A stretch of 64,000 bases of DNA, from the NCBI GenBank assembly GCA_000165345.1, contig CM000433.1, positions 96,001-160,000 on the forward strand, in the 5' to 3' direction. The number at the start of each line of letters is the position of its first letter. The stretch's first letter is position 1. Of this stretch, positions 1 to 64,000 are shown one piece after another. The position numbers were made by a program, and so were the translations under genes. The notes below the pieces were generated by a model. The model made no database searches, was not told where the DNA came from, and worked only from the letters and a program-made list of their open reading frames with translations.

Positions 1-641
1 CATTTATTATATACAAATAACAAAACTTAAATGAATAAATACTTTTTCAGCTGCTATTATTTATTTTCTTTTATTCAAACCTTATCATCATTTCCACTTA
101 ACTTGTTTAACTTTAGTTCATATATTTGAAAATTAATTATATCTTTTTTTTCTTTTCAATAATAATTTTTTAATTTCACACTAATAATGAAACCGCCACA
201 CGTAGTACCGCAATTTGCCGCCACTTGTCAATTTTGAATAATTTTTTTCAATATAAATACATTCTGCAAGAAAAAAAAAATTAAATTATAAGATAATAAT
301 TTTAATTAGTTTATTCTAAACATTAAAAAATTATTTACTTCTGCAGCCTGTTTAAATTTCTTTATCATTAATAAAAATTTACGAAATTCCGAGAATAATA
401 ACAAATAATTATGACGTAATTATTTATTTTTCATGTGGATAATAATATATAAAAATTGCATGTGCTAATAATAATGATAAAAAATGATGGAGAGTAAATA
501 ATTATTATTTATCATTATTGTTAACAATAGTAATAAATAACAAAATAAAAAAAGGAATAGATAGTATTTGAAAGTTAATTTAGTATGAAAACAATTTCAA
601 GAATATTAATGGAAATAAATTAATATTGAATAATTTCGAAT

Positions 642-1931
642 ATGCCAATTTTAAAAAATGAATTGCAAAAAGATAGAGACAAGGATGAAGAAAAGGTTGA
701 AGTACTTAACAAATCTATTTCAGAGAAAAAAGAAAAATTAAATTTTTTAGAGAATAATACCAGAAATGGTTTCAACAATTCAATAAAGAAAATTGAAAAT
801 ATATTAATAAATGCTTATAATCAAGCAAACTCAAACTATAACTCATTCTTTTATAATATTAATATGTTAACTTTACCATATAATAATTTAAGTGAAGAAC
901 CATCAGAAGTACTACAAAGGTTGAATATAAGAAACGAAAATATAAGTGAGCAAGATAATTTAAGAATGAAAATATTACAAGGAGTTAATACAGAATTGAA
1001 TGATAGCTTAAGGATGACTTTGGATGTTGTTTTAAAAACATATAAAGAATTAGAAAAAATACAAAATAAAATTGAAGATTTAATTCTAGAAAATAAGGAA
1101 TTAAAAAATGGAACATTTAACTTAAATATGTCAATACAAGAATTAAAGAATGAAAATAATAAGTTATCACGAGAAAATTTTTATCTAAATGAACAAATTA
1201 AAGAAAGAGTTTCAACTTGTGATAAATATAAAAGTGCTTTAAATAAATCTATTAAAACAATGAAGAAATTATATTTTGAAAATGATAAATACAATAAAGA
1301 AATAAGTCAACTTGAAAATCAGTTAGTAGTATCTAAATTAAGAGTTGCTCAACATAATGAAGAACTTGAACATATACGTACATTACTTAAATATTATAAG
1401 AATCAAGTAAAAAGTGATTATATACTTTCCCCTGCAATTGAACAAATTATTAAAGTTGAGCCTTGTAGAATTCCTTCAAATAACAAGGAAATATCTAAAA
1501 ATAATAATCAAAATCACCACAAGAATACTAATATTGGAAGTATATTATCAAAATTATTATTTAATCATTCTTCAAGTAATACAAGAAATCTTCACAAAAA
1601 TAAGTCTAAGAAAATACCATTAATAAGTACAAGTTATAATAATAATTCACCACAATCATTATCGCCATTTTCAAAATCTCATTGCAACAATAAGCAAGAA
1701 AATACTAAATATAATTCCTCATTAACTATTACTACTCCTGTTAAATTTAAAAAATTATATAATGATGAACACTCGATACAAAGTACTGGAACTGATTATT
1801 GTAATAATGATTTATTTTTCAATCATCAAAGAATATGTAAAGAAAATTTATTTTCATCAGATGATGAAGGATTTATAGAAAATCTACTAAGCAGTCCTCC
1901 ATCAATAAAATCTGCAAAAAGTCTTAAATAA
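642..1931 (+). CDS. hypothetical coiled-coil protein with Asn/Ser-rich C-terminus (429 aa)
   Basis: ATG at 642 verified. Single uninterrupted ORF. N-terminal two thirds are heptad-like and charged (LKNELQKDRDKDEEKVEVL..., ENKELKNG...). C-terminal third is N/S-rich low complexity. No recognisable catalytic motif. Confidence 0.5.
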   Translation: MPILKNELQKDRDKDEEKVEVLNKSISEKKEKLNFLENNTRNGFNNSIKKIENILINAYNQANSNYNSFFYNINMLTLPYNNLSEEPSEVLQRLNIRNENISEQDNLRMKILQGVNTELNDSLRMTLDVVLKTYKELEKIQNKIEDLILENKELKNGTFNLNMSIQELKNENNKLSRENFYLNEQIKERVSTCDKYKSALNKSIKTMKKLYFENDKYNKEISQLENQLVVSKLRVAQHNEELEHIRTLLKYYKNQVKSDYILSPAIEQIIKVEPCRIPSNNKEISKNNNQNHHKNTNIGSILSKLLFNHSSSNTRNLHKNKSKKIPLISTSYNNNSPQSLSPFSKSHCNNKQENTKYNSSLTITTPVKFKKLYNDEHSIQSTGTDYCNNDLFFNHQRICKENLFSSDDEGFIENLLSSPPSIKSAKSLK

Positions 1932-1989
1932 ATATTTCAGTTAATCATTTATATATGCATATGCGTAAATATATATATGTCATTTCATA

Positions 1990-2604
1990 TCATTCTATTG
2001 GATATTCATTAGGTAATTGCCCTCTATTCCATGATCCAGGACCAGCTTTCTCTACATTTAATGGTGGTACTGGTGATTTTTTTATGTTATTGCTGTTATT
2101 ATTATTATTATTATTATTAGTAATAGAATTAGGACTAAGTAATTTTAAATTCACAAATTCTTGATTATTATTTAAATCAATCTTTTGTTCAAACTCATTT
2201 ACATCTATATTTATTGAATTATTATTTAAACTGTTTCTTTTAATATCTCCAATTTGCTCATATACTCCATCCTGTAAATTATCAACATCTTTTATTATAT
2301 CTATATCTGTTCTGAAATCTCTACTAATATTATTTAGCAGTAATATTGAAGAAATCTTATTTCTAAATAATTTTACATATTCAATAACTGAATCAAAGTC
2401 TCCAGTCTCTATTGCGATTAATAACATCTGTTCATCTGCTTGTGTTTCCAAACCAAAATCGTCTAAAATACCGCAAAATGAAGATAACAACAATCCACAT
2501 AATTCCTTTAGTGATGAAGAGGAAGACGTTGAAGATGCATTATTCATTATTTGTGGTTCATATTTATTACTATTATTGTAATGATTAGCTTCAGATACAT
2601 CCAT
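1990..2604 (-). CDS. hypothetical protein (204 aa)
   Basis: ATG verified (cat at 2602-2604 on the + strand). Uninterrupted ORF with a poly-Asn tract. No family assignment possible by eye. Confidence 0.45.
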   Translation of the reverse strand: MDVSEANHYNNSNKYEPQIMNNASSTSSSSSLKELCGLLLSSFCGILDDFGLETQADEQMLLIAIETGDFDSVIEYVKLFRNKISSILLLNNISRDFRTDIDIIKDVDNLQDGVYEQIGDIKRNSLNNNSINIDVNEFEQKIDLNNNQEFVNLKLLSPNSITNNNNNNNNSNNIKKSPVPPLNVEKAGPGSWNRGQLPNEYPIE

Positions 2605-3104
2605 ATTGTTACATTCAACCTAAAAAACACTAATTAAACTTATTATCCTCTTTTTCAATACTTGATTCTTGTTCTATATGTTTATATTAATCTGATTTTT
2701 TCTTCTTTTGTAACCAATTTTCCTCTCATTTACTTTTCAAAACTCAATCTCAAATCCTAACTAAGTATCTCCTATTTTCGTATTATTAGTATTTCATTAT
2801 TCTTATGCATTTATTTATATATTATTTAGTGCCTAAATTTAATGAATTATAATCAAAATTTTATATTTCACACATATTTTAACCCTCATCCACATGTTAA
2901 TAAATACATATTATAAATTTTATTTCTAATTAATTTAAATATAGTAAATTTGAGGTAACCGGAGATTCCCGCCTTTTAAATTAATAAATCAAGTTACTAA
3001 TGAGAAACAAATAGATCAGCTTTATATTATTGATCAAATTTAAAAAAAAAAAAGATAGATTTTAAAATTAATAAATTAAATAAATAAAAGATATGGTAAA
3101 TATT

Positions 3105-3439
3105 TTACCTCCATTTATTAGTATCAATATCACGTGTATCTCTTTCTTTATTTCTTTGATTATTTCTAGAAGAGTTACTAGAATGTCTTCCCATTGATGA
3201 AGATTGTTGCTGATTTTTTGATTGATCATTTGTACCAGTTCTTCTTAGATCCGTAAAACTAACATTTTTATTACTACTATTTGTTCTACTGAAACTTGAA
3301 TTACTAAAACCAGCTCCACTTTCAGCTCCTGAAGCACCACTTGATGAATTTGTCACTCTTGTTAAATCACGTGTAAAATCTACTCTTGATGGGCTTCCAT
3401 TTCCTGAAGTTCCAGTTTTTTGTCTTGTAAATTGTACAC
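3105..3439 (-). CDS. EIF3A: putative 3' terminal exon of eIF3a (S/N/R-rich tail, 111 aa)
   Basis: The donor GTAAGT is at 3869-3864 on the minus strand. The acceptor is ...aaaatttag|gtgtacaattt, with the exon starting at 3439. Phase 1 is conserved: g+gt gives Gly, and the exon continues in the frame of track ORF 3105..3356, whose first codon is actually GTG. Composition matches the low-complexity eIF3a C-tail. Implied intron is 3440..3869 (430 nt). Confidence 0.4.
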
Positions 3440-3869
3440 CTAAATTTTCAAGTTAAAAAAAAAGTATTATGAATAAAAAATAAATGACTATTCTCTAAAT
3501 GAATTTTTATACATATTATAACTTGAAAATTTTGATCATAATCCAAAAGAAAAAAATATTTGAATTAGAAATTCATTCTTATTAAAAAATATTCATACTG
3601 ACGTGCAAATTGGGATTATTCAATCATTTCTTTTTTCTGAAACATAAAAATTATTATTAATAATATAATAATAATCCTCATGTTCTAGCCAGTTTATAAT
3701 CATAATAATAATAACAAAAATGAATTTCTAATCCAAATATTTATTTTCCTTCTTTAAAAGTATTTTCAATTCAATATTTCATTTATATATATTAAAATGA
3801 AAAATTGCCGCGCGCGGCAAATTCATGTATAAATATTCATTCAATAGTCAAATTATTATTTAAACTTAC

Positions 3870-6800
3870 CTGAAGAATTACCATTATTTGATCTAGAGTT
3901 ATTTCCAAAACTTCTATTAGAGTTGTTATTCCCACTTGTTTCTCCTCTTGTGAAGCTAATTGCATCACCTCTATCATTAAATCCACCACTATTATTATTA
4001 CTTGAATTATTAATATTACTACTACCACCACTACTCTTAGAATTTGCAGCCATTAATTTAGCCTCAATTTCCTCCTCTCTTCTTCTCTGCATTTCTAATT
4101 GTCTTTGCATCTTTAATCGTTTTTCCTCTTTTTGTCGGTTCGCTTCTTCAAGTAATCTTGCTTCTTCTTCCTCTCTCTTAGCCTCTTCTTCTTTTCTTCT
4201 TTGTTCTTCTTCATGTAATTTCTTTTCAATAGCTTCATTACGTCTAATCTTAGCTCTAGAAATCTTAAGCTCCTTAATCTTTTTAATACATCTTAATCTT
4301 TGTACCTTTAATTCATCCATAAGCTCTTCCTTTCTTATTTCTAATCGTTTATCTTTCCAATTATTTAAATATGGTAATATAGTTTTCAAGATTTCCTTTT
4401 CTTTATGTGCTTCCTTCTTAATTTCTTCTATCTTTAATAAATAACTATCTTGTAATTGTTTATGCAATTCTTTATCACTTTGAGATATTTTTTTATTCCA
4501 ATCCATTATTAATGGAATTTCCTCTAATCTATATGCTCTAGCTAAATGATCTAATCTTTTAGCTTCTTGTTTTCTTTGTTTAATTCTTTCTTGTCTTTCA
4601 AAGTTACATTGTTCCTCTTGTAATTTTTCTAAATCATCATATAATATTCTACCTTCTAATAAGTCTTCCAATGTTATTTCATCCAAAAGTTTTCCTTTTA
4701 ATACTATCTTATTTGAACTTGTATTCTTAAATGCAAGCTTTTTTATTGTTTCTAGCATCATTCTACAAGCTTCAATCTTATTCTTCTTAATCTCTTCCAA
4801 TTGTCTTGCCTCTTCTCTTCTTCTTCTATCTTCTTCTCTCTTTTGTATTTCCAATAACTCCTCTTGTGCTTTTGCTTCCTTTTCTTGACGTTTCTTATCC
4901 TCTTCAACTCTCTTAAGTTCCTCAATTCTTTCTTTTCTTCTTAATTTAATTTCTTCAATACGTTTTTCCATTGAAATCATTTCAATTGGAAGACGTCTCT
5001 GTACCATTTGAGAAATCTTTGTATTTTGATTATTTAATCCAACCTTTATATTATCTTTATCTAATCTTCTTAAAAGTGTTTCTAACATAAAAGCAGATGA
5101 TAATAATTGATTATTATATTTAGATCCCGAATTATTAATATTACATATTGTTTGTGTCTGTGATAATCCGTTATTATTCGATACAATATTATTTGAATTA
5201 CCACTATTTTTATAGCTATTATTAGCATAATTATTATATCCCAAGCATTTATCCACTGAATATATACATTTTCTTGCATAATCAATTCTTAAATTTATTA
5301 TTGAAGAATTTGATAATTGTACAAGAAGTTTTTCTGTGTCAGTCCATGGTAAAAAGTCATTTGGACATATATTCTTCAAAAATTGATCAATGCAAATAGA
5401 AGAATATACTCTTGAAATTAATAAAAATAGTTTTGTTAAAATAGTTACTTTCAAGGGACGTGTATATTCATTAAAATCTGGATCAATTTGCATCAAGTTT
5501 GTTAAAAGACCATTAGTACTAACACATAATTTCAAAGTATTAGATCTTCCTTCAATTATCCCATATAATTGCTGACATACTGGTAATGATAATCCTAAAA
5601 TATTCTTTGAAATTAACATACTTTTTAATATCTCCCTTGTTGGAATAAATAATGATCCTAATAATAATGCAGCTTTCTTAACTTGATCGCCTTGTGGATA
5701 ATAATCATTGGATGTCATATTTCCTGTAAAATAGCGTGATTTTGAATTTAAGCTCAAGTTATTCTCACTTAATGGAATTGATAATACTGCTAATACAACT
5801 GTAGAAGCCATTTTTGTTAATTCTTCCTGAGATACATTCTTTTTAAATTGCTTTAAATGTAAGAAATATTTTAAATGTGCCAAAGCATGGAATGAATAAT
5901 TCTCTGTTAATAAAAACATTTTACTTAATATATCATAATATAATGCAACCCATCTTAAATATGTTGGTCTAACTTTCATTGCATGTGCACTGTCCATAAT
6001 TTGTGAATTGGCGCCATTTGGGTTATTGGAATTTAATGGAAGAGTAGTACCGCCTAAAAAGTTATTTTGATTAATGCCATGTAATACATTAATTTGGTTA
6101 TTTTGATTATTAGAATTAAATGATGCATTTTGAGTGAAAGAGTTTCCAATAAGAGGATCAAATTGAAAAATTCCAAGATGGAAGATTTCCTCTGCAGTAG
6201 TGAAACATTCATTCCATAATGATAATTTTGCTGCACCTCTGAGTTGAACAATTCTTGTTTCTAGATGACATTCTGGTCTAAGCATGACTTCAATTTCAGG
6301 TCGATGACGATTTGAAACTAAGAGTTGATAGTGAGTTCTGAGTAATTCACAAAGTGTCTTGAATTCGCTAGCTCTATTGTGTTGCCAACAAAATTCTAAA
6401 GCTCTTTGTGCGGTTTCATGATATATTCTCTCTAATTTAGGAGTAAGTCTGATGATGTCTAGAATCATCTTATAAGCTTCCCAAGTAAATCTGAGAGTTT
6501 CATGTAACTTCTTTTCTTTAGCCCCTCTTCTCTCAATTTGTAAGCTTGCTAATAATAAACTTTCAGGTGTTTCTTCTTGTTCAAGATTTTCTTTAATGAG
6601 ATTTGGATCCATACAATCAACACATTCATTTTTCACTGATTGTAGTTGTTCTTCTGCTCTATTACGGAATTCTACAATAACTTTACCTAATGATCCAATA
6701 TTAGATTGATGTGTTACATATCTATATTGATGTAATCCTTCACGTGCCATTCTTGGTTTTTGCAAGTCTACTGAAAGTATAATATATTGAATCATCATCA

Positions 6801-6948
6801 ATTCTTGTGAAGAATCCCATCCATGAACTCTAAATCTTCTGTGATTTACTACTGAGTGTAGTAGTTGAAGAGCAGTTTCATCTTGACCAATTGATCTAAG
6901 TTCCTCTACTCTTCTAATTGCATTTTCTGGTTTGTGAAAGGTCAACAT
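3870..6948 (-). CDS. EIF3A: translation initiation factor eIF3 subunit A (eIF3a), main exon
   Basis: ATG verified at 6946-6948. N-terminus MLTFHKPENAIRRVEELRSIGQDETALQLLHSVV... is the conserved eIF3a/PCI-domain start. A long charged RRREE/EEKR coiled-coil repeat region and a G/S/N-rich tail follow, both typical of eIF3a. The ORF-track stop at 3856 lies inside a GGTAAGT donor. I therefore end this exon at 3870, leaving phase 1. Confidence 0.85.
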
Positions 6949-7277
6949 TTTGTATATAATAAAACAGTATTGTCAATATTCCGTTTGAGAGGCACGTAAT
7001 AAAAATTTATTCACAGAATTTAATAATTTCGTAGAAGTTTTGCTTTTTTATTGATAAATATTTATACTTTTATTATCGAGTAAAAGTAAAGCAATTTAAA
7101 GCAAAGTCTTTCTACAGTTTATTTTTCCTTTATATATGAATATTTTTACTTCCTGTACTTCTCCTTCCTTATAATTTTGTATCAAACAAAATTATTCTTT
7201 TGTTTATTCCCTTTTATTCTTGGGGATTAATATTTGTTTATTTATACGAAATTTATTAGTTTTAGTCCCATTCAATT

Positions 7278-7290
7278 TTTGGCGCCAAAA
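7278..7290. promoter_or_regulatory. palindromic E2F/DP-like element TTTGGCGCCAAAA in divergent promoter (eIF3a / SET gene)
   Basis: Perfect palindrome with a GGCGCC core, read directly from the sequence. It lies between two divergently transcribed genes. The same motif class recurs at most promoters in this window. Confidence 0.6.
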
Positions 7291-7908
7291 GACATCAGTA
7301 ATAGTAAATAATAACTCTGTCTCGTTATAATAATTAATTAATACTGCAACCAAAAAAAAATTCTTTTTTTTTCAGATAGAAATTTGTTTTCTGTTTTCTT
7401 TTTAAATGGACTATTTGACTTTCATGAAACCAATAAATTTCCTTATTTCCATTGTTTATTAATCTTTTTACGCTTATGAGCGAATATCGTTAATATAGTT
7501 ACTAAATATCTTTCAGTTGAATACTGAAATTTGCTATTAGATTGAACTCCTTAAATTTATCGAGATGATTATTCTCATTGAGGATATCTCACTTTTAACG
7601 CCAACTCCAATATTTATACTTATCCAAAACTTTGTTTCATGTTCATATACAAAATATTTGGCGGGTCAGCCGTTAAATTTACAATACTAAGTTACGTCAT
7701 TTATTCTGTGGGAAAAAAAAATAGTAAAATAAAGTATTGAACAATTCATGTTAATTAGTTAAAATCAATTTAAAAATTTATCAGCTAAATACTTCTAAAA
7801 TAAGTATTTATATCCTATCTGTAGAGTTTTTATCTTGCAATAATTATTTTAATCTGATAGTAAATGTATGTGAAAACATACTTAATTTGTTAACGAATAA
7901 AATTTCTA

Positions 7909-10900
7909 ATGCAAAAAAAAAAAGATGATGAAATAATAATTGAAAAAGGAGTAGAAGATGAAATTTTACATCCAATTTCAACCAATTGTACCATTGATGA
8001 AATTTCTCCACCAATTTCATTTCCATTGGACATAAGCATTAATGAGCAATTATTTGAGAGTGATTATTGGGATGATTATTTATCAGATTCTGAAACAGAC
8101 TATTGTGATAACTTTAATGTTAAAGATAAAGTTCATCCAACTAAACGAGTTTGGAATGATAACTTAGAAAGATCCTGCGGAGTATGCAATTATATAGAAA
8201 ACTACACTGAACTCTCAAATATGATAAAATGTGAAGGTTACTGCAGAAAACCATACCACTTAAAATGCGTCGGACTCGAAGAATTACCAAATACTCGATG
8301 GAAATGCCAAAACTGCATAAATAATCTTGTTTTTTGCAATATCTGCAACTCATTCAGCAATAAATCTAGCTGTAATTTTCTTAAATGTTATCATCCAATA
8401 TGTATGAGATTCTTCCACACTCAATGTTTACTTTATTATCAAAATAATATTATTTGGACCTTCAATAATTCATGTGGACAAAAGTGCGTGGCGCCTGACG
8501 AAAATGCATGTATGCACCCTGAGATAAATATAGGTGGTAAAATATTGAAAAAAATATTTGGCACAGAAAATGTGAATGAAGAAGAAGTAACTTCAAAGTT
8601 ATTGAATGAATTTGGATTTAAGTTCATTTGTGATCGTCATTATTGCTCATCTTGTAGTGACTATAATAAAAACAAGAGAATTTTGAAAAATGAAACTCAA
8701 ATTGAAATTTCAAGAAAAAAAAGAGTTATATTTAAATTAGATGATCCTGATGATTTATTCTACTGCATTAAATGCAATTCAGGGTATCACAGCCATTGTC
8801 TACATCCTGATTCTATTAAATTAGTAAATGGGGTTTGTATTTGTTATAAACATATACACGATCAAAGTGATATGATATTGGGTAGGTATAATATTAAAGA
8901 TGAAATTGACTCTAAGTTAAAAATACAGTTACAGAATTGTTTGAAGTCTAAGAATGGAAAAAGATTAAATAAGGAGCTAAAATTGGCATTAATACAAAAA
9001 ATAGTTAATCATTTAGAATCTTCAGAGTTTAATCTTAATTCATTACCATTCCAACTTCCTGGACAGTCAAAAGACTGGTTATGTATTGAAATAGAAAATC
9101 TAATTAATGAACATAATTTGAAATATGAGAGTCAAAAGGCCATAAATTTTTTACAAAATTATGGATTTACGCATATTAGAAGAAATATCTATTTAGAAAA
9201 TATTAACGACTCCCAAGATGAAGAATTTGAGACATTATCAGACACAGGTCATTCAGGAAGCAAAAATAAACAAAAAAAAGAAAAAAATATTAAAAATAAT
9301 CAAAATTTAAAGAAAAAAATATCTACATTAAATAAAAAAGATAAAATATTCAATGAAAAATGTGTTTGCAAAACAATTTGTGAAAAAGATACTTGCCAGA
9401 ATGCTGCAATGTTTATTGAATGCAATTCAAATATATGTGGGCTGGATGAAGGAATTCAGAAAAAAAATTGTATGAATAGAATATTTAATAGTAATAATAA
9501 CAAATTCTTAGATAATCAAAAGAAAATTATTTTAAAGAATTTAAAAGTTATAGATGCTGGAGAAAAAGGATTTGGTATTACTACTAATATGACTATTCCA
9601 AAAGATACTTTTATTATAGAATATGTCGGAGAAATATTAACTAGAGAAAATTACTTAAAAAGAGTTGAAAAATATAAGGAAAGAGAATTAGAATCAAGAA
9701 AAAAATCTATAATAATGGATTATTATAAAGAAGATCATGAGTTTAATGAAGACTTTGTCTTACCAAAAGATACTAGAGAAAGGCATTGGTACTGTATGGA
9801 GATTGGAAATGACTATATTATTGATAGTACAAATAAAGGAAATTTGAGTAGACTAATTAATCATAGTTGTGATCCAAATTGTATTGCGCAAAAATGGTTA
9901 GTAGGGAACGAATGTAGAGTTGGTATTTTCTCAAAAAGAGAAATTTTACCAAATGAAGAACTTACATATGATTACTCATTCACAGCTTTTGATATTGGTT
10001 TTAAATGTAAATGTAATTCTCCTTCATGCAAGGGAAGAATTGGAATAGAAAACTTTAAAGAAACTAATCAAGAACTTATTAAGAAAAGAAATTTACTATG
10101 TAAGAACACGAATATGATAAATTCATTCACAAATCTAAATAAATCATTATTTAATAATCCAATTTGTTCAGAAATAGATGAGATCTTTACGTCAAGATAT
10201 GATTATATTAATGACAATCCAGAATTTTACCATAAATTAGAAAAATATTGTGATAAAATTAGCAAATATAATCAAGTATTACATGATCATGTTACAAATG
10301 GGATTCAAATTTATCCATATGATTTCAAATTCAGAAATTCATTATATGGTTATACAAGCCTTTTATATTTTGATTCTCCTGATATAATTTCAGATTGGTA
10401 TTTTAAAAAATCAAAAAATATTGTTTTAATGAATAAACCATGGATTATTCTTCCCTTCGCATTTAATTCACGAGAATTTACTTATTTAAAATATCCATTA
10501 AATATGAATTATTTAAAAAAACAAGTATGTAAACGTTTAACTATTTCTTTGGATAAAAGCAATCCAAAACTAAGTAATAATTCAATTTTCTGGCATTTAT
10601 TTGATTTAGGGATTGGAAGTGATGAATGTTGTAATATTTGTAATAATCCCGGTACTTTAATTACGTGTGACTATTGTTATGATTCATTTCATAAATATTG
10701 CTTATATAATAATGAAATTCCAAATAATTTGAAAAGATCACGACTTTCTTATAATTATAATAAAGTTGAGGAAAAGATTAAATGTAGAAATTGTATGGAA
10801 AATGAGTTGATATCAGTTTATTGGCTTAAAACTACCTATAAGCGAAGAAGGTACAACTATTTTTTAAGACATAAATTACATTCTATTCCATTATATATTA

Positions 10901-10923: not shown

Positions 10924-11072
10924 TTTTTTTTCTTAAAAAAAAAAAAAAAAAAAAATTGAATATTTTATTAATTTATTTTGGATCTAAGTTTGAGTTATTA
11001 TTTAATTAATTATTTATCGTTGTTATGATGGCTTTCTAATACTTCTCACTTGTGTAAACTATAGTTAATGAG

Positions 11073-13547: not shown

Positions 13548-17846
<4,299 letters not shown>

Positions 17847-20789: not shown

Positions 20790-21746
<957 letters not shown>

Positions 21747-51929: not shown

Positions 51930-51931
51930 CT

Positions 51932-54900: not shown

Positions 54901-55896
54901 TAAAATTAAATCGTATTCCCCAGTGGGTAATATCCAACAGTTAGTTTGGCCATACATAGTTTCTGGTCTTAAAGTTGCACAAACTAAAAACACATCCCTT
55001 CCGCCCACTAATTCCTCAATATCTTCTGGTAAACTTAGTGCTTTCAACTTAATTAAAGTATATTCTTGAGGTCCAACGCCCTCACCTGAAGATCTATCGT
55101 GGTCAGCACAAGGCTGATTTTCTATTCTACTAAATACTGCAGGCCTTAGTCCATATCTTATTTTATCTTTCTTAAACTATAATGTAATTAAAAATTAATA
55201 TTATAATTTTTAAAAAAAAAATCCAAGTATTGATTTAAAACTTACCTTCAAAGTTCTGAACTGCCATTTAACGAAAGCATCATAGTAAGGATTAATATCA
55301 GTTGTAATAAATGATCTCCTCCAATCAACAGCAGTTCCAAAATTCTTTAAATCTTTCTTTGTAAGTGGGGGAAAATATTCTGTCCAATAAATTGGGTCAG
55401 TAAATTTACTAATTTCTTCTTCAGGAATACCCATTGCTTTAAGAATTTCTGATTGGGTTTTTGCTCCCCCAGTTTTAGCTGCAACCTTACTTTTAAGTTG
55501 TACTTGGCTTGTCTCTTGTTCTTTATCATCATCAGTTTCAGCTAACTTTGGTGAATTCAACTCCATCTTTAACTTATCTGCGCTTGCACAAATTGGCATT
55601 CCCGTACAATGAAAACCAAATGGAAATAATACATTTTTATTATTCATTCTTTGGAATCTTGCTTGAAAATCTGCTTTTGTCAACGTAAAGGCATGCCCCA
55701 AATGTAACCTTCCATTCATATATGGATATGGAAATGTAATCATGTATTTTTCACGAGATGGATCTACATCTGCCTCATATATTTGACTCTCTTCCCAGAG
55801 TTTTTGAACCTGATGCTGTACCGAAAGTAATTTATCCCTTCTTTGTCTTGAACCTCCAGTATTTCCAGAATCATTGGCTTTTGTACTCATATTCAC
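51932..55896 (-). CDS. LARS1: cytosolic leucyl-tRNA synthetase, 3 exons (about 1140 aa): join(55246..55896,53079..55176,51932..52605) on minus
   Basis: ATG verified (cat at 55894-55896). HIGH motif FPYPYMNGRLHLGHAF. GTAAGT donor after ...FRTLK, then a 69-nt intron. Exon 2 runs from the CP1 editing domain to the KMSKS motif (SMKMSKSTGN) and ends phase 1 at a GTAAGT. A 473-nt intron follows. Exon 3 begins E-TQIKILTPIAPHTCEYIW, which aligns to human LARS1 [15 protein letters not shown] with no missing residues. The three track ORFs (55210..55896, 53059..55047 with a TTG start, 51932..52513) are exons of one gene. Confidence 0.85.
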
Positions 55897-56050
55897 TGAT
55901 AATTAATCCGCCCCTCAAACAAATAATCACGAGGCTAAAATTGAAAATTAAAATATAAATATAGAATATATATTTATATCACTAGTTTACATCAAAAGTC
56001 AAACTTTTCAAGTTAAATAATAATAGAAAAAAAAATTGTAATGACGTGTT

Positions 56051-56060
56051 TTCGGCGCCA
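56051..56060. promoter_or_regulatory. E2F-like TTCGGCGCCA in divergent promoter (LeuRS / YggS)
   Basis: aatgacgtgttttcggcgccaccacaatt read directly. Confidence 0.5.
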
Positions 56061-56214
56061 CCACAATTAGTTACTACTTAAATATATTTAATGTCATGTG
56101 GATGGTATTTATTAAATAATAATAATATTAACAATAATATGTTGAATGAATATAATAAACCAGCACAATTTAAATACAATATATAGATTCTGAGGGGAAA
56201 ATATTTTATTTAAA

Positions 56215-56931
56215 ATGTCAGAAAATGAAGTTATTGATAACTATATGAAAATTAAGAACCAAATTAAAGAGCTTTGCTCAGGTTTTGAAAGTTTTCCCGA
56301 ACTATTGGTTGTAAGTAAGTACCAGAGTGAGGAGAATATCAAGTTACTGCATGAAAAAACCGACCAAAAGATATTTGGAGAAAATTATGTACAGGAGTTG
56401 ATGGAAAAATCTAGGAATTTACCCAAATCAATTAAATGGCATTTTATAGGTCACTTGCAAAGTAATAAAGTTAAAACTTTATTATCTATTGACAACTTGG
56501 AAGTTATAGAAACAGTTGATTCAATAAAACTTGCGCAAGTGTTAAATAAAGAATGTCAGTTACAAGGAAGATCAGTTTTGAAAGTAATGATACAGGTAAA
56601 GACTTCAAATGAAGTCAACAAATCAGGAGCTCAAATTTCTGAAGCTATAAATATTTTTGAATATATAATTTCTGAGTGTAGGAATCTCAAATTTCAAGGT
56701 TTAATGACAATGGGAGATTCAGATGTTAACCTTACTAGTGAATGTTTTAATAAGATGGTAAATTTGAGAAATATTATCAATGAAAAGATTTCAAAGAATG
56801 GCAACTATGATCAGTCTATTGAATGTAGGCTCAGTATGGGAACTACAAGAGATATGGAAATAGCAATAAAAAATCATACGAATGAAGTAAGAATTGGAAG
56901 TGCAATTTTTGGAGATAAAAAGAAAGGTTAA
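56215..56931 (+). CDS. PLPBP: pyridoxal-phosphate homeostasis protein (YggS/PLPBP/PROSC family), 238 aa
   Basis: ATG at 56215 verified. Family motifs LLVVSKYQ (PLP-Lys), FGENYVQEL, WHFIGHLQSNKVK, RLSMGTTRDMEIAI, RIGSAIFG. Confidence 0.8.
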   Translation: MSENEVIDNYMKIKNQIKELCSGFESFPELLVVSKYQSEENIKLLHEKTDQKIFGENYVQELMEKSRNLPKSIKWHFIGHLQSNKVKTLLSIDNLEVIETVDSIKLAQVLNKECQLQGRSVLKVMIQVKTSNEVNKSGAQISEAINIFEYIISECRNLKFQGLMTMGDSDVNLTSECFNKMVNLRNIINEKISKNGNYDQSIECRLSMGTTRDMEIAIKNHTNEVRIGSAIFGDKKKG

Positions 56932-57066
56932 AGTTTAAGTCCTGATAATAAATATAGATATTTACGTTAAAGACAATAAAATTTATCAACAAGTTTACAT
57001 TAATATAAAATTATAGATATATCTTATAAAGCATAATAAATATATGAGGGGGGAAAGTAAATTTGA

Positions 57067-58374
57067 TCATTCTACTTTGGTATCTTCCTTTATATTCACT
57101 TCGCTCTTTAAATTAAATAGCTCAGCTTCTTTATTAAGAATCGAATCAATATCTTTACTAGATTTCAAACTATTGAAATGTTGTTCGATCGCCTTACAAA
57201 GAATTGAAACACTTGAATCTGGCTTATTGTAAAGATAACAATTAGAAAATATTTGCTGTATATCTGCTATTGTTTCCCTACAAAGTTCGTACTCACCATT
57301 TCTAAGTTTCTTGCGTATTAGACTAAAGTCCATTGGCTTTGTAATAATCTTATAATAATCTGAACAGTTCCAAGCTTTCTCATCAACAGGCTTATCGAAA
57401 ATCCAGGCACCCTCTTGTTTTCTGAGCTCTTCAACACATTCGCTGATAGTTTTATACCACGATGCTCTGAAAGGATCAGAATTTGGCTTCAAACTTGCGA
57501 CTGGTGACTCTTTTGACCAAACTGCAATGTTTGGAAATTTTTCTTCAAACTCCTCAATTTTTATTTTTGGAGCGAAATACCACTTTCCGTCACTCCCCTT
57601 AAATTGTAATCTATAACACTGTCTTATTTCAGAATCTTTAATTCCTCCCTCACCCACAATAGAATTACACAAAGATACTCTATCAAGGCTGGCATCCTTT
57701 TCTAAGTTACCCGAGCCTTCAAATGCATTAGCACCCATTCCCGCTCCGCCAGAGCTAGCCATCCTATTTTTTAAAATATTTGCTAATTGTTTATGCCCAC
57801 TTTTTAATGCATAAGAATGTGCTGCTTGTCTATTCTTATCCTTAATCCCTGCATCAGCTCCATTATCTAATAATAACATACATGTTTGAGATCTCCCATC
57901 TCTTGCTGCATAAAATAAAGCAGTTTGGCCAACATTGTCAGAAAGATTCGGTTCTGCGCCTTTATCCAATAAAAGTTTTACAGCTTCAAACCTACCATCC
58001 CTAGCTGCATAAAACAAAGCTGTCTGATTTACTCTATCAGTATGATTGACGTTGCAGCCATTATCTATCAAAAATTCAGCTGTCTTTACATTTCCATCCC
58101 TGCAAGCAAAAAACAATGCAGTTTGTAAGCTAAAATCTGTGGATGCAACATCTAGCTCTGGGCACTTCTCCAAAATCTTCTTACAAACCTGAAGTGCTTC
58201 ATCATCGTTTGTTCTTTGAACTGCATAAAATATTGCATTAGCATTCGTAACTGAACATTTTTTCGATAATTCACTACTATCTAATGTATCTATCAGATCC
58301 AATGTTGACTGTACACCATCCCGTCGAATGGACTCTATTAGACGGCTACTTTCAAAACTCACTAACTCTCCCAT
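57067..58374 (-). CDS. ankyrin-repeat + bromodomain protein, 435 aa
   Basis: ATG verified (cat at 58372-58374). About four ankyrin repeats (TALFFACRDGNVKTAEFLIDNGCNVNH, TALFYAARDGRFEAVKLLLDKGAEPN, TALFYAARDGRSQTCMLLLDNGADA, AAHSYALKSGHKQLANIL). C-terminal bromodomain (FDKPVDEKAWNCSDYYKIITKPMDFSLIRKKL...IFSNCYLYNKPDSSV). Confidence 0.75.
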   Translation of the reverse strand: MGELVSFESSRLIESIRRDGVQSTLDLIDTLDSSELSKKCSVTNANAIFYAVQRTNDDEALQVCKKILEKCPELDVASTDFSLQTALFFACRDGNVKTAEFLIDNGCNVNHTDRVNQTALFYAARDGRFEAVKLLLDKGAEPNLSDNVGQTALFYAARDGRSQTCMLLLDNGADAGIKDKNRQAAHSYALKSGHKQLANILKNRMASSGGAGMGANAFEGSGNLEKDASLDRVSLCNSIVGEGGIKDSEIRQCYRLQFKGSDGKWYFAPKIKIEEFEEKFPNIAVWSKESPVASLKPNSDPFRASWYKTISECVEELRKQEGAWIFDKPVDEKAWNCSDYYKIITKPMDFSLIRKKLRNGEYELCRETIADIQQIFSNCYLYNKPDSSVSILCKAIEQHFNSLKSSKDIDSILNKEAELFNLKSEVNIKEDTKVE

Positions 58375-58486
58375 TTCATATAGAGTCTTTTCCTATATTT
58401 TTAATTTGGGAGGAAAAAACTCGTTTTTTCCTATTTTATTCTTCCTTATTCGCCGATAGTTAACTATCCAATTTTTGACTAAACTA

Positions 58487-58501
58487 TGGCGCCGGCGGCA
58501 A
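58487..58501. promoter_or_regulatory. extended GC palindrome-like element TGGCGCCGGCGGCAA in divergent promoter (bromodomain gene / alveolin)
   Basis: Read directly. Followed by CCGCC and GATGCATGC (near-ApiAP2 motif) within 50 nt. Confidence 0.5.
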
Positions 58502-58854
58502 TTTCCATGCCCACACTTTTTTATTACCGCCTGTCCGATGCATGCTTGAAAAAATTAGTGGAAATTGAAAATAGTGCCTGAAGAGGAGAAATAAATTATT
58601 CTTCCCAACTGTCATCTTTGTTTAAAACAAGAGCAGACTAGGAAGCCTACTTTTTTCTTTGATTGATCCCTGAAAAGTAAAATAAAGGAACAAAGTAAAT
58701 CTAAAGCTTATAAATATTGCAAATAAAAAATATTATTCGAAATTTTTATAATAATATACACCCATTAGAAATTGTATCATAAATTTAGCAATCTTCGAGG
58801 TGAAAAAAAAAATACTTCTTCTTACAGTAACATATTGTAGCCCACCCAAAGAAG

Positions 58855-60124
58855 ATGGAGAATGGTAAGTTTAAATATTTAGAAAAATTACATTTAAGAT
58901 TATAACTTTTAATTTACTATTTGTAGATATTGACTCAAAAGGAATGCATTTACCTCCGAATATTTCTCTTGTGCCTCCAGAAATACCAACCAAATTGATG
59001 GCACAGGGAGTATTTCATGTAAGTTAATCATTTTGAACATGTAATGTGCAATTTATTCTTAATTTTAGGAGAGAGTTGTGGAAAAGCCTAAGGTTATTAA
59101 TGAAGAAGAAATTGTTGAAATAGAAACAATAGAGTACCGAGAAAAGTTGGTCGAAGTCCCAGAGATTATTTACAAAGAAAACATTATAAAAGTTCCAAAA
59201 ATTGAAATACAGGAAAGAATTATAGAAGTTCCTAAAATTAATGAAGAAGAGAAAATAGTTTATGTACCAGAAGTGAGATATGTGGAAAAATTTGTGGAAA
59301 AGAAAGAAAGAGTATTAAAGGAAAAAACAGTTTTTGTTCCAAGAGTTGAAGTTCAAGAGAGAATCGTAGAGGTGCCTAAAATAGTAATCGAAGAGAAAAT
59401 TGTTGAAGTTCCACAAATTCAGTACAAAGAAGTTATTATGGAAAAGATCTTAGAAATACCACAAATACAAGAAGAAATTGTGTGGAAAGATGTGGTTGTT
59501 CCAAACATTCAGCCAAGATATATTGAAACTGAAAAAATCGTAGAAATTCCTGTTGTACAAACAATAGAAAAGTTGGTACATGCGTCAGTTCCTCAGTATA
59601 AAATGATTAAACAAGATATCAATGTCCCAATCGTAGATATTAAAACAGTTCCAAAAGATTGTGTATTAGAAAAATTGAAATATGTGCCTGTTCCTGTTGA
59701 TAGATATCAAGAAGTACAGGTGCCAAAATATGTACTTAAAACTGTTGAAGTTCCTGTTCCTGTTCCAATTGAAAAAATTGTTGAAGAAGAAGTACCGGTA
59801 CCAATATCTGTAGAAAAAGTTGTACATGTGCCAAAAATAATACAGAGGCATGTACCGCGTACATTTAATGTTCCAATACCTGTATATTCAGATGCATTGA
59901 TAGAATCAAGGGTAGGACTAATGCCATATAATACATTTTTATCTATTAATCATGAATCAGCAGAAGAATCATCTCAGCAATTAACACCACCAAATAATAT
60001 TAGTCATATTCAACAAAATATACAGGCTAGAAGTAGTTATGGAACTGGAGTCGAAGTTAGTTCTAGCATCTCATTATTCAAATCCCCGGAAAGAGAAGCA
60101 GAAGATAGAGATTACTTAAATTAG
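58855..60124 (+). CDS. alveolin / IMC1-family cytoskeletal protein with EKIVEVP-type repeats, 3 exons: join(58855..58864,58927..59018,59069..60124), about 385 aa
   Basis: Iterated alveolin repeats (EKLVEVPEIIYKENIIKVPKIEIQERIIEVPKI...ERIVEVPKIVIEEKIVEVPQIQYKEV...VEVPVPVPIEKIVEEEVPVP). The track ORF start is GTG. Upstream, two in-phase GTAAGT introns connect a 92-nt exon (DIDSKGMHLPPNISLVPPEIPTKLMAQGVFH) and a 10-nt first exon (ATGGAGAATG). An alternative start is the in-frame ATG in exon 2 (MHLPPN...). Confidence 0.6.
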
Positions 60125-60320
60125 ATTAGTCAAAACCACCTTACATCTAATACTAATATCTAAAGAATTTAAAATAATGCTATTTTTAATTATAATAAAT
60201 ACTTTTATCCAAAAACTCTTATATTTAACTCTTTATATTTAGCCAATTTTTCTTTTTATAATAAATCATTACGTATTTTGCAACGCCATGCATCTTCCCC
60301 CAAAATAAAAACTTGCTAAG

Positions 60321-60328
60321 TTGGCGCC
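60321..60328. promoter_or_regulatory. E2F-like TTGGCGCC upstream of His-rich protein gene
   Basis: gcaacgccatgcatcttcccccaaaataaaaacttgctaagttggcgccctattg read directly. Includes a CCATGCAT near-ApiAP2 motif. Confidence 0.4.
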
Positions 60329-60724
60329 CTATTGAGATTGTATTATTTAAGATAGAATAAATCGAACTAAATGAAGGAACTGAAAATAGAGTGTATATAA
60401 ATTCTATATATGGGATAAAATTAGAATAATGGATTTTATGTGTGTTAAGTAAGCATTTGTCAATCGAATGTTTATCTATAGCTTAAGATCAGTAAACTAG
60501 GCTTTAGATGAATATTTAGAATAGCAGATAGCCATAATTAATAAAGCTATAATTATTTTTTTATTTGAGTTAAAGTTCTTGGATGAGCATATTAAAAATT
60601 GAAATTTGGTATAATTTTCTGCAATATTTCAGAATTATAACCTATTGTTCTTAGTTTTTAACTAAATTATTTCAAATCAATTGATAAGTTGCTTTAACTT
60701 AAATATCGTACTCAACCTCCGGAA

Positions 60725-62689
60725 ATGCTAAGCAATGAGAATAATATAAAAACAAAATCAAAAATCTCCAATATGTTCAAAAAACCAATTGATTCTAATA
60801 TAGAAATCCAAACATCTTCAAATGATTCTGAATTGAAAAATACTTTTGAAAGTAAAATATATCATCAGATTAAAACATGGAAAGATAATAAAATATCTAA
60901 TAAGGACTTAGAAGATTTGGATGGTAAGTACTTGGTATGCAATCTTGAGTTTGATGAGAAGAAAAATATTGAATTTGATAGTAAAGAACAAATCAATAGA
61001 AGAATGAAAGGAAGTATATTAAATCCACTGATGTTTAGCTTTTCAGATACAGAAACTCCAAAATTTGAACTTAAAGAACTTCCTGGTAATGATTTGAATA
61101 ATATAATTCAAGATAATGTCAAAAAATCTCAACTAAAACAAATCAGTCATGTGAATTTAAAGGTAAAACTTTCAATAGAAAATCTACTAAAATTAAATGA
61201 AATACTCAGAATAAATCTAGAAAGCGAAACACCAACTGTTGTATCATCTTCTGAAACTCAGCTTGAATTGGATCAAAGTGCTTTGGATGAATTGTTTTGC
61301 GATCAACATGATGGTAATTCTTCAAAAATTGACTTTATTGAAAAGTTGGCAGACCAAATTGTATCTAGTATTAAAAGCCTAATAATGGGAGAAGCTTTAT
61401 TAGGAGCTGATAATGCAAGACAAATACTTGTCTTCGAGTTGAAATCGCTTCAGAAATTGTTTATTGAAGATAAAAAAGAAGAGATTTCTAAATCTATTGA
61501 ATCTTTAATATTGCAAACTAGTTCTGATGACGATATTCAGATGTTAATTTTTAAGATAGACCAAATCCGCTCTGCATTGAAACATTTTAACCTTTCAAAT
61601 AGGTTTCAGGATTTTAATTTCGGATATAACAACTCATCCAATGAAATAGAAGATGGAGAACGGACACTACAAACCAATCAAGCAAATAACTTTTTTGCAA
61701 AGCATAAACTTCTAAAGTTTAATAAATGGTGCAAGCAATTGAATGCTTCATCAGAGAATACTGGAAGCAACGTTGCAAGTGGTGAAAGCAATTCAAACAA
61801 TCATCGTCTCGCTCATCATCATGATGGGCATTCTCATCACCATCATATTCTTTCACACTATAAGCATCACCAGCATCGCAATATTAGTAATAGCAATGAA
61901 AAAAATAGAGACATTGTAAAAAGAGAAGAAGATTTTGATTCTCCTCATGCGGAAAATTGTGTCCAACTGTTTTCTCCTGACAATTATGATGGCTGGAATA
62001 CAGAACATTCAAAAGGTGTTTCATTATCATACAAAATAGACTCATCATCAAATGGGCATTTGTCTATAAATGTAGTAATAAAGAGTGATATTAATTGTAA
62101 ATTACTGAACTTACTTACAATATTGAATGAAGTTGAACTTTCAAATATGTGGGTACCATATATCTCTTATTCAAAATGCTTTTACAACTTTAGTCGTGTA
62201 AGCAAGTTGGTACAACAAGTATATGATCTTCCATGGCCAATAGGACAAAGAGAAAATATCATGTTCTGCTTTGGAGTAGATACATTAAAAGAACATGACT
62301 GCATTATGATTTCATGTGGGGATCCTCAAACTTCAAATAATAAATTCTTTGGAGCCAATATTCCCGATCCACCTCCAAAAGTACCAAGAGAGAAATGCAG
62401 TTATCTTCTGTTTATTCTAACTCCTTCAGAGAATGACAAGGACCTCACTACTCTGGAAATGTTTTCTAGTTTCTCTGTGACAAAGTATGTTCCGATTAAA
62501 CTTACATCATTTTTGATTAAAAGAATGACTAGGAAAATGTATACTGATATTACAACCTTAGCTTCGAATATTAATGGCTCCCCTTATGAGACTGCATATA
62601 ATAATAACTTACAACTCTATTCGTGGCTAGATATGAAGCTATCACAATATGAATCGAAGCAAAGAAAAAATGACAAAGATTTCATATAG
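60725..62689 (+). CDS. hypothetical protein with His-rich tract (HRLAHHHDGHSHHHHILSHYKHHQH) and a conserved-looking C-terminal domain, 654 aa
   Basis: ATG at 60725 verified. Uninterrupted ORF. N-terminal half is charged and coiled. A His-rich segment sits mid-protein. The C-terminal about 230 aa are non-repetitive with W/P/C landmarks (MWVPYISYSK...DLPWPIGQRENIMFCFG...PDPPPKVPREKCSYLLF), which could be a lipid-binding (START-like) fold. Unconfirmed. Confidence 0.5.
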   Translation: MLSNENNIKTKSKISNMFKKPIDSNIEIQTSSNDSELKNTFESKIYHQIKTWKDNKISNKDLEDLDGKYLVCNLEFDEKKNIEFDSKEQINRRMKGSILNPLMFSFSDTETPKFELKELPGNDLNNIIQDNVKKSQLKQISHVNLKVKLSIENLLKLNEILRINLESETPTVVSSSETQLELDQSALDELFCDQHDGNSSKIDFIEKLADQIVSSIKSLIMGEALLGADNARQILVFELKSLQKLFIEDKKEEISKSIESLILQTSSDDDIQMLIFKIDQIRSALKHFNLSNRFQDFNFGYNNSSNEIEDGERTLQTNQANNFFAKHKLLKFNKWCKQLNASSENTGSNVASGESNSNNHRLAHHHDGHSHHHHILSHYKHHQHRNISNSNEKNRDIVKREEDFDSPHAENCVQLFSPDNYDGWNTEHSKGVSLSYKIDSSSNGHLSINVVIKSDINCKLLNLLTILNEVELSNMWVPYISYSKCFYNFSRVSKLVQQVYDLPWPIGQRENIMFCFGVDTLKEHDCIMISCGDPQTSNNKFFGANIPDPPPKVPREKCSYLLFILTPSENDKDLTTLEMFSSFSVTKYVPIKLTSFLIKRMTRKMYTDITTLASNINGSPYETAYNNNLQLYSWLDMKLSQYESKQRKNDKDFI

Positions 62690-63110
62690 AGTATTGAAAA
62701 GAATAGGTAAATATAAGTAAAAATATTATTCATGTTTTTATTATTTTAATATAAATTTTTTTTTCTTGATTTACATTTAATTAAAGGAATTAATATATTA
62801 TTTTTTAATATCTCCACGTGTCACAACTTCCTGATAATTTAACTCATTAAATTTCAACCAAGTTTTGTTAGGTATGTTATATGTTTTAAATTAAAAGCTA
62901 GAAACAAAATACTTCAGAATTTCTGATATATTCACGTATTCAGCAATTATTTCGAATTTTTTTTTTTTACCATTTAACAAATGCTATTTCATTTCGCATG
63001 TGATTAAATATTCAAATAAATGGCGGGCAATTGATTTGAATGAAAAATAAATTTCTGGAGAAACAAAAATTAGTAATTTTTTTTGGCAATGAAATAATAG
63101 CTTAGTAAAA

Positions 63111-63713
63111 ATGATAATATGTTTGGGACCATTTTGTATTCCAGTATGGAATATTTTTCTGTTTCTATTTGCTCTGATCGGTCCAATAATTAATTTTTTG
63201 AAGAGGATATTTCTCGGAAAAAAGTCAAATATAAAAAATAGGGGTGAGCTAACTATTGGTAATCATGAGAAAATCTTAGAAGAGAAAGATTTAGCTGAAA
63301 TCGGTATAGAATCGCACCTTTTTAGGGAAAGTTACGAGAAAATCTTGAAATTAGTAGAATCACGAAATGTTTTGGAACTTGAAAATATTAATGATTGGGA
63401 AATATGTAAGCTTTTAGGAAAGAATTTGGAGCTTCCCATTCTGGTAGATTACTATGCAGATTGGTGTAACCCATGCAAAAAGATCTCCACCACTTTTAAG
63501 AAACTATGTAAAGAATATAATGGTATATTTATAAAAATTGACTACGAAACTCATACCAATTTTTGCTATGATATGGGCGTTTTCAGCCTTCCAACTTTTC
63601 ACTTTTGGATACTGGACAACAACTCCTATATTCTAGTAGACAAATTGGAAAGATCAGATTCTAAAGAATTAGAGAACCTCTTGGTAAAAAATAAATTCAA
63701 AATTATAAAATAA
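63111..63713 (+). CDS. thioredoxin-domain protein with N-terminal TM anchor, 200 aa
   Basis: ATG at 63111 verified. N-terminal hydrophobic segment (IICLGPFCIPVWNIFLFLFALIGPIINFL). Thioredoxin active site variant WCNPCK (canonical WCGPCK). Thioredoxin fold landmarks follow (SLPTFHFW). Confidence 0.65.
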   Translation: MIICLGPFCIPVWNIFLFLFALIGPIINFLKRIFLGKKSNIKNRGELTIGNHEKILEEKDLAEIGIESHLFRESYEKILKLVESRNVLELENINDWEICKLLGKNLELPILVDYYADWCNPCKKISTTFKKLCKEYNGIFIKIDYETHTNFCYDMGVFSLPTFHFWILDNNSYILVDKLERSDSKELENLLVKNKFKIIK

Positions 63714-63814
63714 CTATTACTTTTATTAATTTAAAAAAAAAGAGAAATTAATCCTCATATGAATGTTTAAACTATTTTCAAACGTAGTATTAATTCTTTT
63801 AACTTTTTTGTGAC

Positions 63815-64000
63815 CTAAATTAATGTCATTTTTTCCTGAACTGCAGTGTCTCTCATTGTATCATTGCCATTATCTTTATCTTTCACGTCATTATTTGAAT
63901 GTTCAATCTCAGAAAATAGATACTCTTGTTGGTAATCAATAAGATATTGAGTACTTCTCTTAACATCAATAAAAAGTGAATAGGCTTTTTTAATCTCGTC
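63815..64000 (-). CDS. 3' end of an unidentified gene running off the window (partial, C-terminal about 61 aa)
   Basis: Open frame on the minus strand from the window edge to TAG at 63815-63817 (...DEIKKAYSLFIDVKRSTQYLIDYQQEYLFSEIEHSNNDVKDKDNGNDTMRDTAVQEKMTLI*). No identification possible. Confidence 0.3.
   Translation of the reverse strand, partial: DEIKKAYSLFIDVKRSTQYLIDYQQEYLFSEIEHSNNDVKDKDNGNDTMRDTAVQEKMTLI

Follow-up and report, generated by a model that had tools for sequence, protein, structure and literature searches.

A 64-kb stretch of apicomplexan DNA that is almost certainly a chromosome 5 segment of the Cryptosporidium parvum IOWA lineage

The DNA studied here is a 64,000-nucleotide (nt) stretch of contig CM000433.1 (positions 96,001 to 160,000 of the forward strand), which at its full length we call the window. 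It is almost certainly a segment of chromosome 5 of the Cryptosporidium parvum IOWA lineage with normal, published features, in which the low GC content is a local trough and the ambiguous base calls (N calls) and small insertions or deletions (indels) are assembly errors. The window has been sequenced and annotated before, and nothing in this main finding is new. A reading made from the letters alone (the sequence-only reading) had recognized a compact, Cryptosporidium-like apicomplexan chromosome segment and had suggested that it may belong to a draft assembly of a less-studied, lower-GC species or a close relative; the genus held up, and the draft of another species did not.

We compared the window, in four overlapping megablast pieces, with CP044418.1, which is chromosome 5 of C. 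parvum IOWA-ATCC (assembly GCA_015245375.1), using comparison DNA taken around four matched genes. Identity was 99.995% over window positions 1..20923, 99.961% over 15186..35905, 99.887% over 29865..52874, and 100.000% over 50725..64000 (13,276 nt). The window is near-identical to C. parvum chromosome 5 and aligns with it from end to end, as the sequence-only reading had expected from the Rad51-CAP neighbourhood, and the alignments therefore place it at about 117,117-181,117 on CP044418.1. An exact-sequence look-up of ten open reading frame (ORF) products returned C. parvum proteins for six, among them the IOWA II entries EAK88172, EAK88167, EAK88162, and EAK88158, as well as products of the C. 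parvum locus tags CPHLJ_5g620 and 5g650.

At orthologous loci, DNA identity to the window fell to 92.8% in C. meleagridis, 79.3% in C. ubiquitum, 76.3% in C. canis, and about 70-73% in C. bovis, C. ryanae, C. andersoni, and C. muris, making C. parvum the closest of the species aligned. The protein rankings agree. Leucyl-tRNA synthetase (LeuRS) matched a C. parvum/hominis cluster at 100%, C. canis at 87%, C. bovis at 73%, and C. andersoni at 60%, with Chromera, gregarines, and Babesia at 47% or less; eIF3a matched Cryptosporidium species at 99, 94, 93, 88, 84, 74, 73, and 70%, with Toxoplasma, Cyclospora, Theileria, and Babesia at 42% or less. Gene order from zf-MYND to the thioredoxin and RuvBL genes is kept in C. 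meleagridis, C. canis, and C. bovis, and from zf-MYND up to the START-like gene in C. andersoni, while the order from Rad51 to CDC50 is kept in C. ubiquitum and C. ryanae and partly in C. muris. Best protein homologues and synteny with these seven other species thus put the genus Cryptosporidium first, and the LeuRS and eIF3a comparisons proposed to challenge this call led to Cryptosporidium, neither outside Apicomplexa nor to Plasmodium or Toxoplasma, with synteny inside the genus.

Across the 64 kb, the window differs from CP044418.1 at 34 positions. Twenty of these are N calls (24968; 39142..39518), three are G for T in a G run beside the N calls, seven are single-base indels (five intergenic at 24874-25169, and two that break frames, at 38527 and 46698), and four are other substitutions. 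The N calls, whose presence had been pointed out earlier, are low-quality Sanger base calls, and 19 of the 20 fall inside the Fringe-like glycosyltransferase gene within one stretch of ~380 nt. The same gene holds the G-run artefact at 39150-39156 (GGGGGGGGGGG in the window, GGTGGTGGTGG in IOWA-ATCC) and, at 38527, a 1-nt deletion relative to IOWA-ATCC; its faults look like a poor read end retained in the assembly. At 46698, an additional T relative to IOWA-ATCC breaks the gene for a 1135-amino-acid (aa) protein into the ORFs 46317..46724 and 46741..49725, and is probably an error of the older assembly. The 2004 IOWA II assembly holds 18,558 ambiguous bases and is 99.93% identical to IOWA-ATCC, which has no ambiguous bases (PMC8744675), and we infer that this Sanger assembly is most likely the source of the window. 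The N calls and the two frame-breaking indels would then be base-calling or assembly errors, since corrected in the later long-read assembly.

Base composition, together with the N calls and the long introns, had been read as a hint of another species. GC content is 25.46% over the window (0.205-0.315 in 4-kb steps) and 27.0% in its coding sequence (CDS), and GC at third codon positions (GC3) is 18.0%, against published C. parvum values of 30.2% for the genome, about 32% for CDS, and 24.0% for GC3 (PMC10438818), so the impression that AT content exceeds the C. parvum expectation was accurate. A draft of a less-studied, lower-GC Cryptosporidium such as C. baileyi, or of a close relative of the genus, would account for this: at GC 25.5% and GC3 18% the window lies nearer to C. 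baileyi (24.3% and 12.6%; PMC10438818) than to the C. parvum means, and N calls are present. Against such a source stand 99.9-100% DNA identity with C. parvum IOWA-ATCC over the full 64 kb, several ORF products that are C. parvum proteins exactly, and an identity of no more than 92.8% to C. meleagridis, the next closest of the species sampled; the N calls fit IOWA II. The composition itself changes along the chromosome, from 23.3% GC in the central 32 kb (16001..48000) to 29.1% in the last 16 kb and 34.9% in the 8.7 kb directly downstream of the window on the same C. parvum chromosome. The window is low in GC yet its neighbour is not, and low GC is thus regional and not a trait of the species: it is a local trough reflecting heterogeneity inside C. 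parvum. We rejected C. baileyi and similar low-GC species on DNA identity, and give a source of this kind practically no chance.

An origin from a sibling species, C. hominis or C. tyzzeri, in which gene order is shared and proteins are near-identical, deserves a hardly greater, still very slight, probability. Several window proteins share 90% clusters with C. hominis and C. tyzzeri proteins, and the representatives of the top LeuRS and eIF3a clusters are labelled C. hominis (100% and 99%). The exact matches, however, are C. parvum entries, with the C. hominis versions as separate cluster members; the C. hominis actin-like protein has 414 aa vs. 418 aa in the window; and 100.000% identity over 13.3 kb to IOWA-ATCC compares with the 95-97% identity to C. 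parvum published for C. hominis and C. tyzzeri (PMC8744675). Three points count against assigning the window to the C. parvum IOWA lineage. Its GC lies 4.7 points under the C. parvum genome mean; the attribution to IOWA II draws on N calls, indels, and the identity of a 306-aa ORF with EAK88167, not on direct alignment; and four of the ten ORF products have no exact protein match. The last of these includes eIF3a, which is accounted for by the annotated start and exon model (the ORF here is exon 1 only), and Rad51, glycerophosphodiester phosphodiesterase (GDPD), and the bromodomain protein, for which the IOWA-ATCC gene calls are equal in length. With these points weighed, the C. parvum IOWA lineage remains the almost certain source.

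As an observation in its own right, the GC contrast within one chromosome is sharp between the central 32 kb and the DNA just past the window end, and gene content or Asn-rich low-complexity proteins could be its cause.

Two genes had been singled out as lineage markers. The alveolin matched Pfam IMCp in three stretches (E 2.7e-22; 79.3 bits against a gathering cut-off of 21.1), and the EKIVEVP-type repeats noticed earlier are readable in its ORF as EKIVEVPQ, ERIVEVPK, and ERIIEVPK. Alveolins are found across Alveolata, and therefore this gene supports the superphylum and not Apicomplexa specifically. In CAP, CAP_C (PF08603) spans residues 12-167 of 172, with a weak TBCC match within the same region, and the protein is 100% identical to PDB 2B0R. 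It consists of the CARP/CAP_C part only, without the N-terminal helical-folded, proline-rich, and WH2 regions, as the sequence-only reading had said; one paper (PMC6785269, citing Hliscs et al., 2010) describes CAP as reduced to the CARP domain in Apicomplexa.

In the window, GGCGCC occurs at 12 sites vs. 0.25 expected (48-fold), a number that 0 of 100 shuffles reached. Ten of the 12 sites are intergenic (intergenic DNA makes up 19% of the window; binomial P of about 3e-6 for this concentration), each of them 5' of at least one gene, and nine of these ten lie between divergent genes. Most sites have a T-rich 5' flank and an A-rich 3' flank, which is the shape of an E2F/DP site, and the variant GGCGGG/CCCGCC is intergenic and upstream of a start codon in seven of seven cases. 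A palindromic [C/G]GCGC[G/C] core, T/A-rich flanks, and upstream over-representation are thus found together, suggesting that the GGCGCC sites are putative E2F/DP-type promoter elements. Their promoter placement had been recognized earlier, and so had their likeness to a known over-represented upstream element: in C. parvum, no upstream motif is more over-represented than the E2F motif TGGCGCCA (Oberstaller et al., 2013; PMC3734150). The same paper reported E2F/DP factors to be absent from Plasmodium falciparum and still called for chromatin immunoprecipitation sequencing (ChIP-seq) of E2F/DP binding.

The two long introns, in eIF3a and LeuRS, have exactly the lengths given earlier (430 and 473 nt); both are real and stand in the published C. 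parvum annotation. We placed introns with a solver that required the annotated product length, GT..AG ends, and an open frame, and that allowed one or two introns; with these settings it did not arrive at the annotated Fringe-like, TPR, and zf-MYND models, and for zf-MYND many splice solutions are possible.

The eIF3a intron keeps its position in C. ubiquitum (about 470 nt), C. ryanae (about 400 nt), and C. muris (226 nt). Within it, the 18-mer AUUUGCACGUCAGUAUGA is invariant in C. parvum, C. ubiquitum, C. ryanae, and C. muris, and is preceded upstream by a AUGAUUGA box, an internal hairpin, and a 5' (A/G)UGAUUA box. The hairpin has a wholly different sequence in C. ryanae and C. muris with its pairing kept. 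After the 13-nt guide AUUUGCACGUCAG come a U and the box AUGA, so that ribosomal RNA (rRNA) antisense of at least 10 nt lies beside a D/D'-type box. Its complement, the large subunit (LSU) rRNA segment CUGACGUGCAAAU, lies within the 16-mer TCTGACGTGCAAATCG, which is present in LSU rRNA genes: it was found in at least 120 metagenomic contigs, and the three that were checked are all LSU rRNA genes (one eukaryotic, two archaeal). Compared with the canonical RUGAUGA/CUGA, the boxes of the element are variants (AUGAUUA or GUGAUUA, and AUGA), and a perfect AUGAUGA occurs in C. muris at the internal, C'-like position. The element did not reach the Rfam gathering score for a C/D family (snoZ122, 24.6 bits vs. 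38). Because it shares the guide of snoZ122 and is complementary to LSU rRNA, it is best read as a candidate guide RNA of the C/D type, with variant boxes, directed at LSU rRNA. Matches to mir-302 and mir-2012 in this intron merely reflected the AT-rich internal hairpin, and we rejected a microRNA.

Also in the eIF3a intron, at 3805..3820 (about 50 nt from the 5' splice site and about 100 nt upstream of the small nucleolar RNA [snoRNA] candidate), lies the GC palindrome TTGCCGCGCGCGGCAA (16 nt), whose core CGCGCG is E2F-like. Conservation is near-complete in C. ubiquitum (TGCCGCGCGCGGGAA) but does not extend to C. ryanae, and the palindrome could be an internal promoter element.

LeuRS intron 2 stands at a position common to five species, with 473 nt in C. 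parvum, about 474 in C. meleagridis, about 612 in C. canis, about 408 in C. bovis, and about 231 in C. andersoni. It is mostly unalignable across the five save for a core of about 160 nt, which folds as hairpin-hinge-hairpin-tail in all of them (C. parvum: minimum free energy -40.7 kcal/mol, z-score -3.8). In hairpin 1, the internal-loop (pocket) strands GUUCUAAU and UUAUCUCC are invariant, and the stems around the pocket hold six pairs with compensatory changes on both sides; hairpin 2 is not alignable across species. The hinge carries an ANANNA H box in four of the five species (AUAACA, AUAAAA, AGAAAA, AUAAAA), and the tail reads AUA in C. parvum but ACA in the other four species. Judged by sequence and predicted fold, the element shows the anatomy of an H/ACA snoRNA and is a candidate for one. 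No recurrent rRNA target for the pocket was found among 120 metagenomic LSU-containing fragments. A match of this intron to Schizosaccharomyces pombe snR5 in Rfam at a permissive threshold was at chance level (E 1.1) and was not used.

Each of the two introns would thus host a conserved snoRNA, which in our view probably explains its length. Li et al. (2022; PMC9465071) describe 23 intronic noncoding RNAs in C. parvum, four of them snoRNAs, and suggest that such RNAs keep introns alive; both of our candidates may already be among them. A more specific proposal, which we consider doubtful, is that the two longest introns persist by virtue of genus-conserved snoRNAs, one a Z122-like C/D RNA guiding methylation at LSU CUGACGUGCAAAU, possibly with the non-canonical boxes AUGAUUA/AUGA, and the other an H/ACA RNA, and that one or both are absent from the C. 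parvum annotation and from Rfam. If not already listed, the candidates could help to fill the sparse Cryptosporidium snoRNA catalogue.

The window is packed with long ORFs on both strands. The IOWA-ATCC gene calls mapped onto it give 30 protein genes in full, a further one truncated at the window end, and a single tRNA-Thr(UGU), which is also the sole Rfam match at gathering threshold in the whole window; CDS ranges cover 80% of it (Table 1). An earlier count of about 36 protein genes was a modest overestimate, and the high density and single tRNA were right: there is about one gene per 2 kb, slightly above the published 422-442 genes per Mb (PMC10438818). Convergent stops had been put at 2-14 nt apart. 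Two pairs are indeed 2 nt apart (Rpn13/GDPD at 25905/25908 and actin-like/LeuRS at 51929/51932), but the figure of 14 nt is an overlap (42860..42873) that arises only if the zf-MYND terminal ORF is used, and the remaining pairs are spaced 23-840 nt. All three stop codons are in use (TAA 20, TGA 5, TAG 4), and homopolymer runs in the products include N12, N14, and S28, the longest for Asn and Ser being 14 and 28; both traits had been read correctly.

Some gene models differ between sources. At 17889..18906, a 60-aa call in CP044418.1 stands against a 202-aa TPR protein in CP029784.1, whose gene includes 409 nt of introns. For zf-MYND, CP044418.1 has a partial, stop-less model of 850 aa, vs. 886 aa through a GTAAGT..TAG intron at 43622..43859; the 886-aa model ends at 42860 and overlaps the last 14 nt of the neighbouring gene. 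The genes for the 177-aa hypothetical protein and the 361-aa hydrolase lie on the same strand with a stop-to-ATG gap of 10 nt (24133..24144), which leaves too little room for a promoter, and the two may belong to a single gene split in error or be transcribed together. Polycistronic transcripts have reportedly been described in C. parvum in a 2025 preprint.

Table 1. Positions in the window of genes, introns, candidate RNA elements, and putative E2F-like sites (divergent region: intergenic DNA between divergent genes).
Feature	Position	Strand	Remark
Hypothetical protein, 429 aa	642..1931	+	no Pfam match
Hypothetical protein, 204 aa	1990..2604	-	N8 run
eIF3a, 1137 aa	3105..6948	-	two exons
eIF3a intron, 430 nt	3440..3869	-	GTAAGT...TTTAG; only GT..AG solution giving 1137 aa
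Candidate C/D-box-like snoRNA	3588..3708	-	inside eIF3a intron; guide AUUUGCACGUCAG
C-like box AUGAUUA of the candidate	3703..3697		
D-like box AUGA of the candidate	3596..3593		
E2F-like site tttttGGCGCCaaaa	7281..7286		eIF3a / SET divergent region
PHD/SET histone methyltransferase, 1004 aa	7909..10923	+	= C. parvum EAK88172 exactly
Rad51, 347 aa	11073..12116	-	
GGCGCC	12475..12480		Rad51 / 1432-aa gene divergent region
Asn-rich hypothetical protein, 1432 aa	13548..17846	+	22.8% Asn; runs N12/N11/N10
TPR protein	17889..18906	-	models differ between assemblies
CAP, 172 aa	19516..20034	-	
RING-finger protein, 318 aa	20790..21746	-	S28 run
GGCGCC	22260..22265		RING / 102-aa gene divergent region
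102-aa protein	22428..22837	+	101-nt intron
Alpha/beta hydrolase (Peptidase_S9-like), 361 aa	23048..24133	-	
Hypothetical protein, 177 aa	24144..24677	-	
GGCGCC	24994..24999		177-aa gene / Rpn13 divergent region
Proteasome receptor Rpn13/ADRM1, 240 aa	25183..25905	+	
GDPD, 355 aa	25908..26975	-	
TRM10 tRNA methyltransferase, 246 aa	27368..28108	+	
Symplekin-like protein, 1720 aa	28201..33363	-	
Two GGCGCC (34002, 34026)	34002..34031		symplekin / CTU1 divergent region
CTU1-type tRNA 2-thiolation protein	34130..35327	+	two exons; 306-aa ORF = EAK88167 exactly
tRNA-Thr (UGU)	35612..35688	+	
V-ATPase subunit D, 254 aa	36168..36992	-	60-nt intron 36904..36963
Fringe-like glycosyltransferase, 574 aa	37564..39556	+	
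Asn-rich hypothetical protein, 1002 aa	39865..42873	+	
zf-MYND protein	42860..45758	-	3' end differs between models
GGCGCC	45890..45895		zf-MYND / 1135-aa gene divergent region
Hypothetical protein, 1135 aa in IOWA-ATCC	46317..49725	+	two ORFs in window
FAM210-domain protein, 208 aa	49749..50375	-	
Actin-like protein, 418 aa	50673..51929	+	= EAK88162 exactly
LeuRS, 1138 aa	51932..55890	-	three exons
LeuRS intron 2, 473 nt	52606..53078	-	unique GT..AG solution from annotated length
Candidate H/ACA-like snoRNA	52777..52938	-	inside LeuRS intron 2; hairpin-hinge-hairpin-tail
LeuRS intron, 69 nt	55177..55245	-	GT..AG solution from annotated length
GGCGCC	56054..56059		LeuRS / YggS divergent region
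PLP homeostasis protein (YggS type), 238 aa	56215..56931	+	exact C. parvum match
Ankyrin-repeat and bromodomain protein, 435 aa	57067..58374	-	
GGCGCC	58488..58493		Ank-bromodomain / alveolin divergent region
Alveolin (IMCp repeats), 385 aa	58855..60124	+	introns 58865..58926 and 59019..59068
GGCGCC	60323..60328		upstream of START-like gene
START-like domain protein, 654 aa	60725..62689	+	exact C. parvum match
Thioredoxin-domain protein, 200 aa	63111..63713	+	= EAK88158 exactly
RuvB-like/TIP49 gene, 3' end	63815..64000	-	cut by window end

The features that had served as a taxonomic signature would be ordinary, published traits of a compact genome: a gene every 2 kb or so, introns that are scarce and for the most part short, AT-biased coding sequence with Asn/Ser runs, the standard genetic code, a truncated apicomplexan CAP, an alveolin, and short divergent intergenic regions with E2F/DP-type TTTGGCGCCAAA sites. 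The finding itself carries little biological weight, since a known reference genome was re-identified by sequence features alone. The gene-level reasoning of the sequence-only reading was sound (CARP-only CAP, alveolin, E2F sites, stop usage, exact intron lengths). Neither composition nor N calls can be relied on to tell the species or the assembly status, and GC in a 64-kb window can be almost 5 points under the genome mean.

Set beside known systems, the window has the same sequence, gene order, and gene models as IOWA-ATCC chromosome 5, including the 430-nt eIF3a and 473-nt LeuRS introns, and is unlike it in the 20 N calls, the G-run artefact, the frame-breaking indels at 38527 and 46698, and a few substitutions. 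Its CAP is the crystallised apicomplexan C-CAP (PDB 2B0R), CARP/CAP_C only, with no difference, and its GGCGCC sites share core, flanks, and 5' placement with the C. parvum E2F/DP-type upstream motif 5'-TGGCGCCA-3', again with no difference. The candidate in the eIF3a intron resembles the plant C/D snoRNA Z122 (Rfam RF00343), whose consensus ends in AUUUGCACGUCAGU-CUGA, in having the same antisense AUUUGCACGUCAGU followed by a D-type box; it differs in its D box (AUGA, not CUGA) and C box (AUGAUUA, not RUGAUGA), and, unlike plant snoZ122, it would be a longer, intron-encoded RNA with an internal hairpin.

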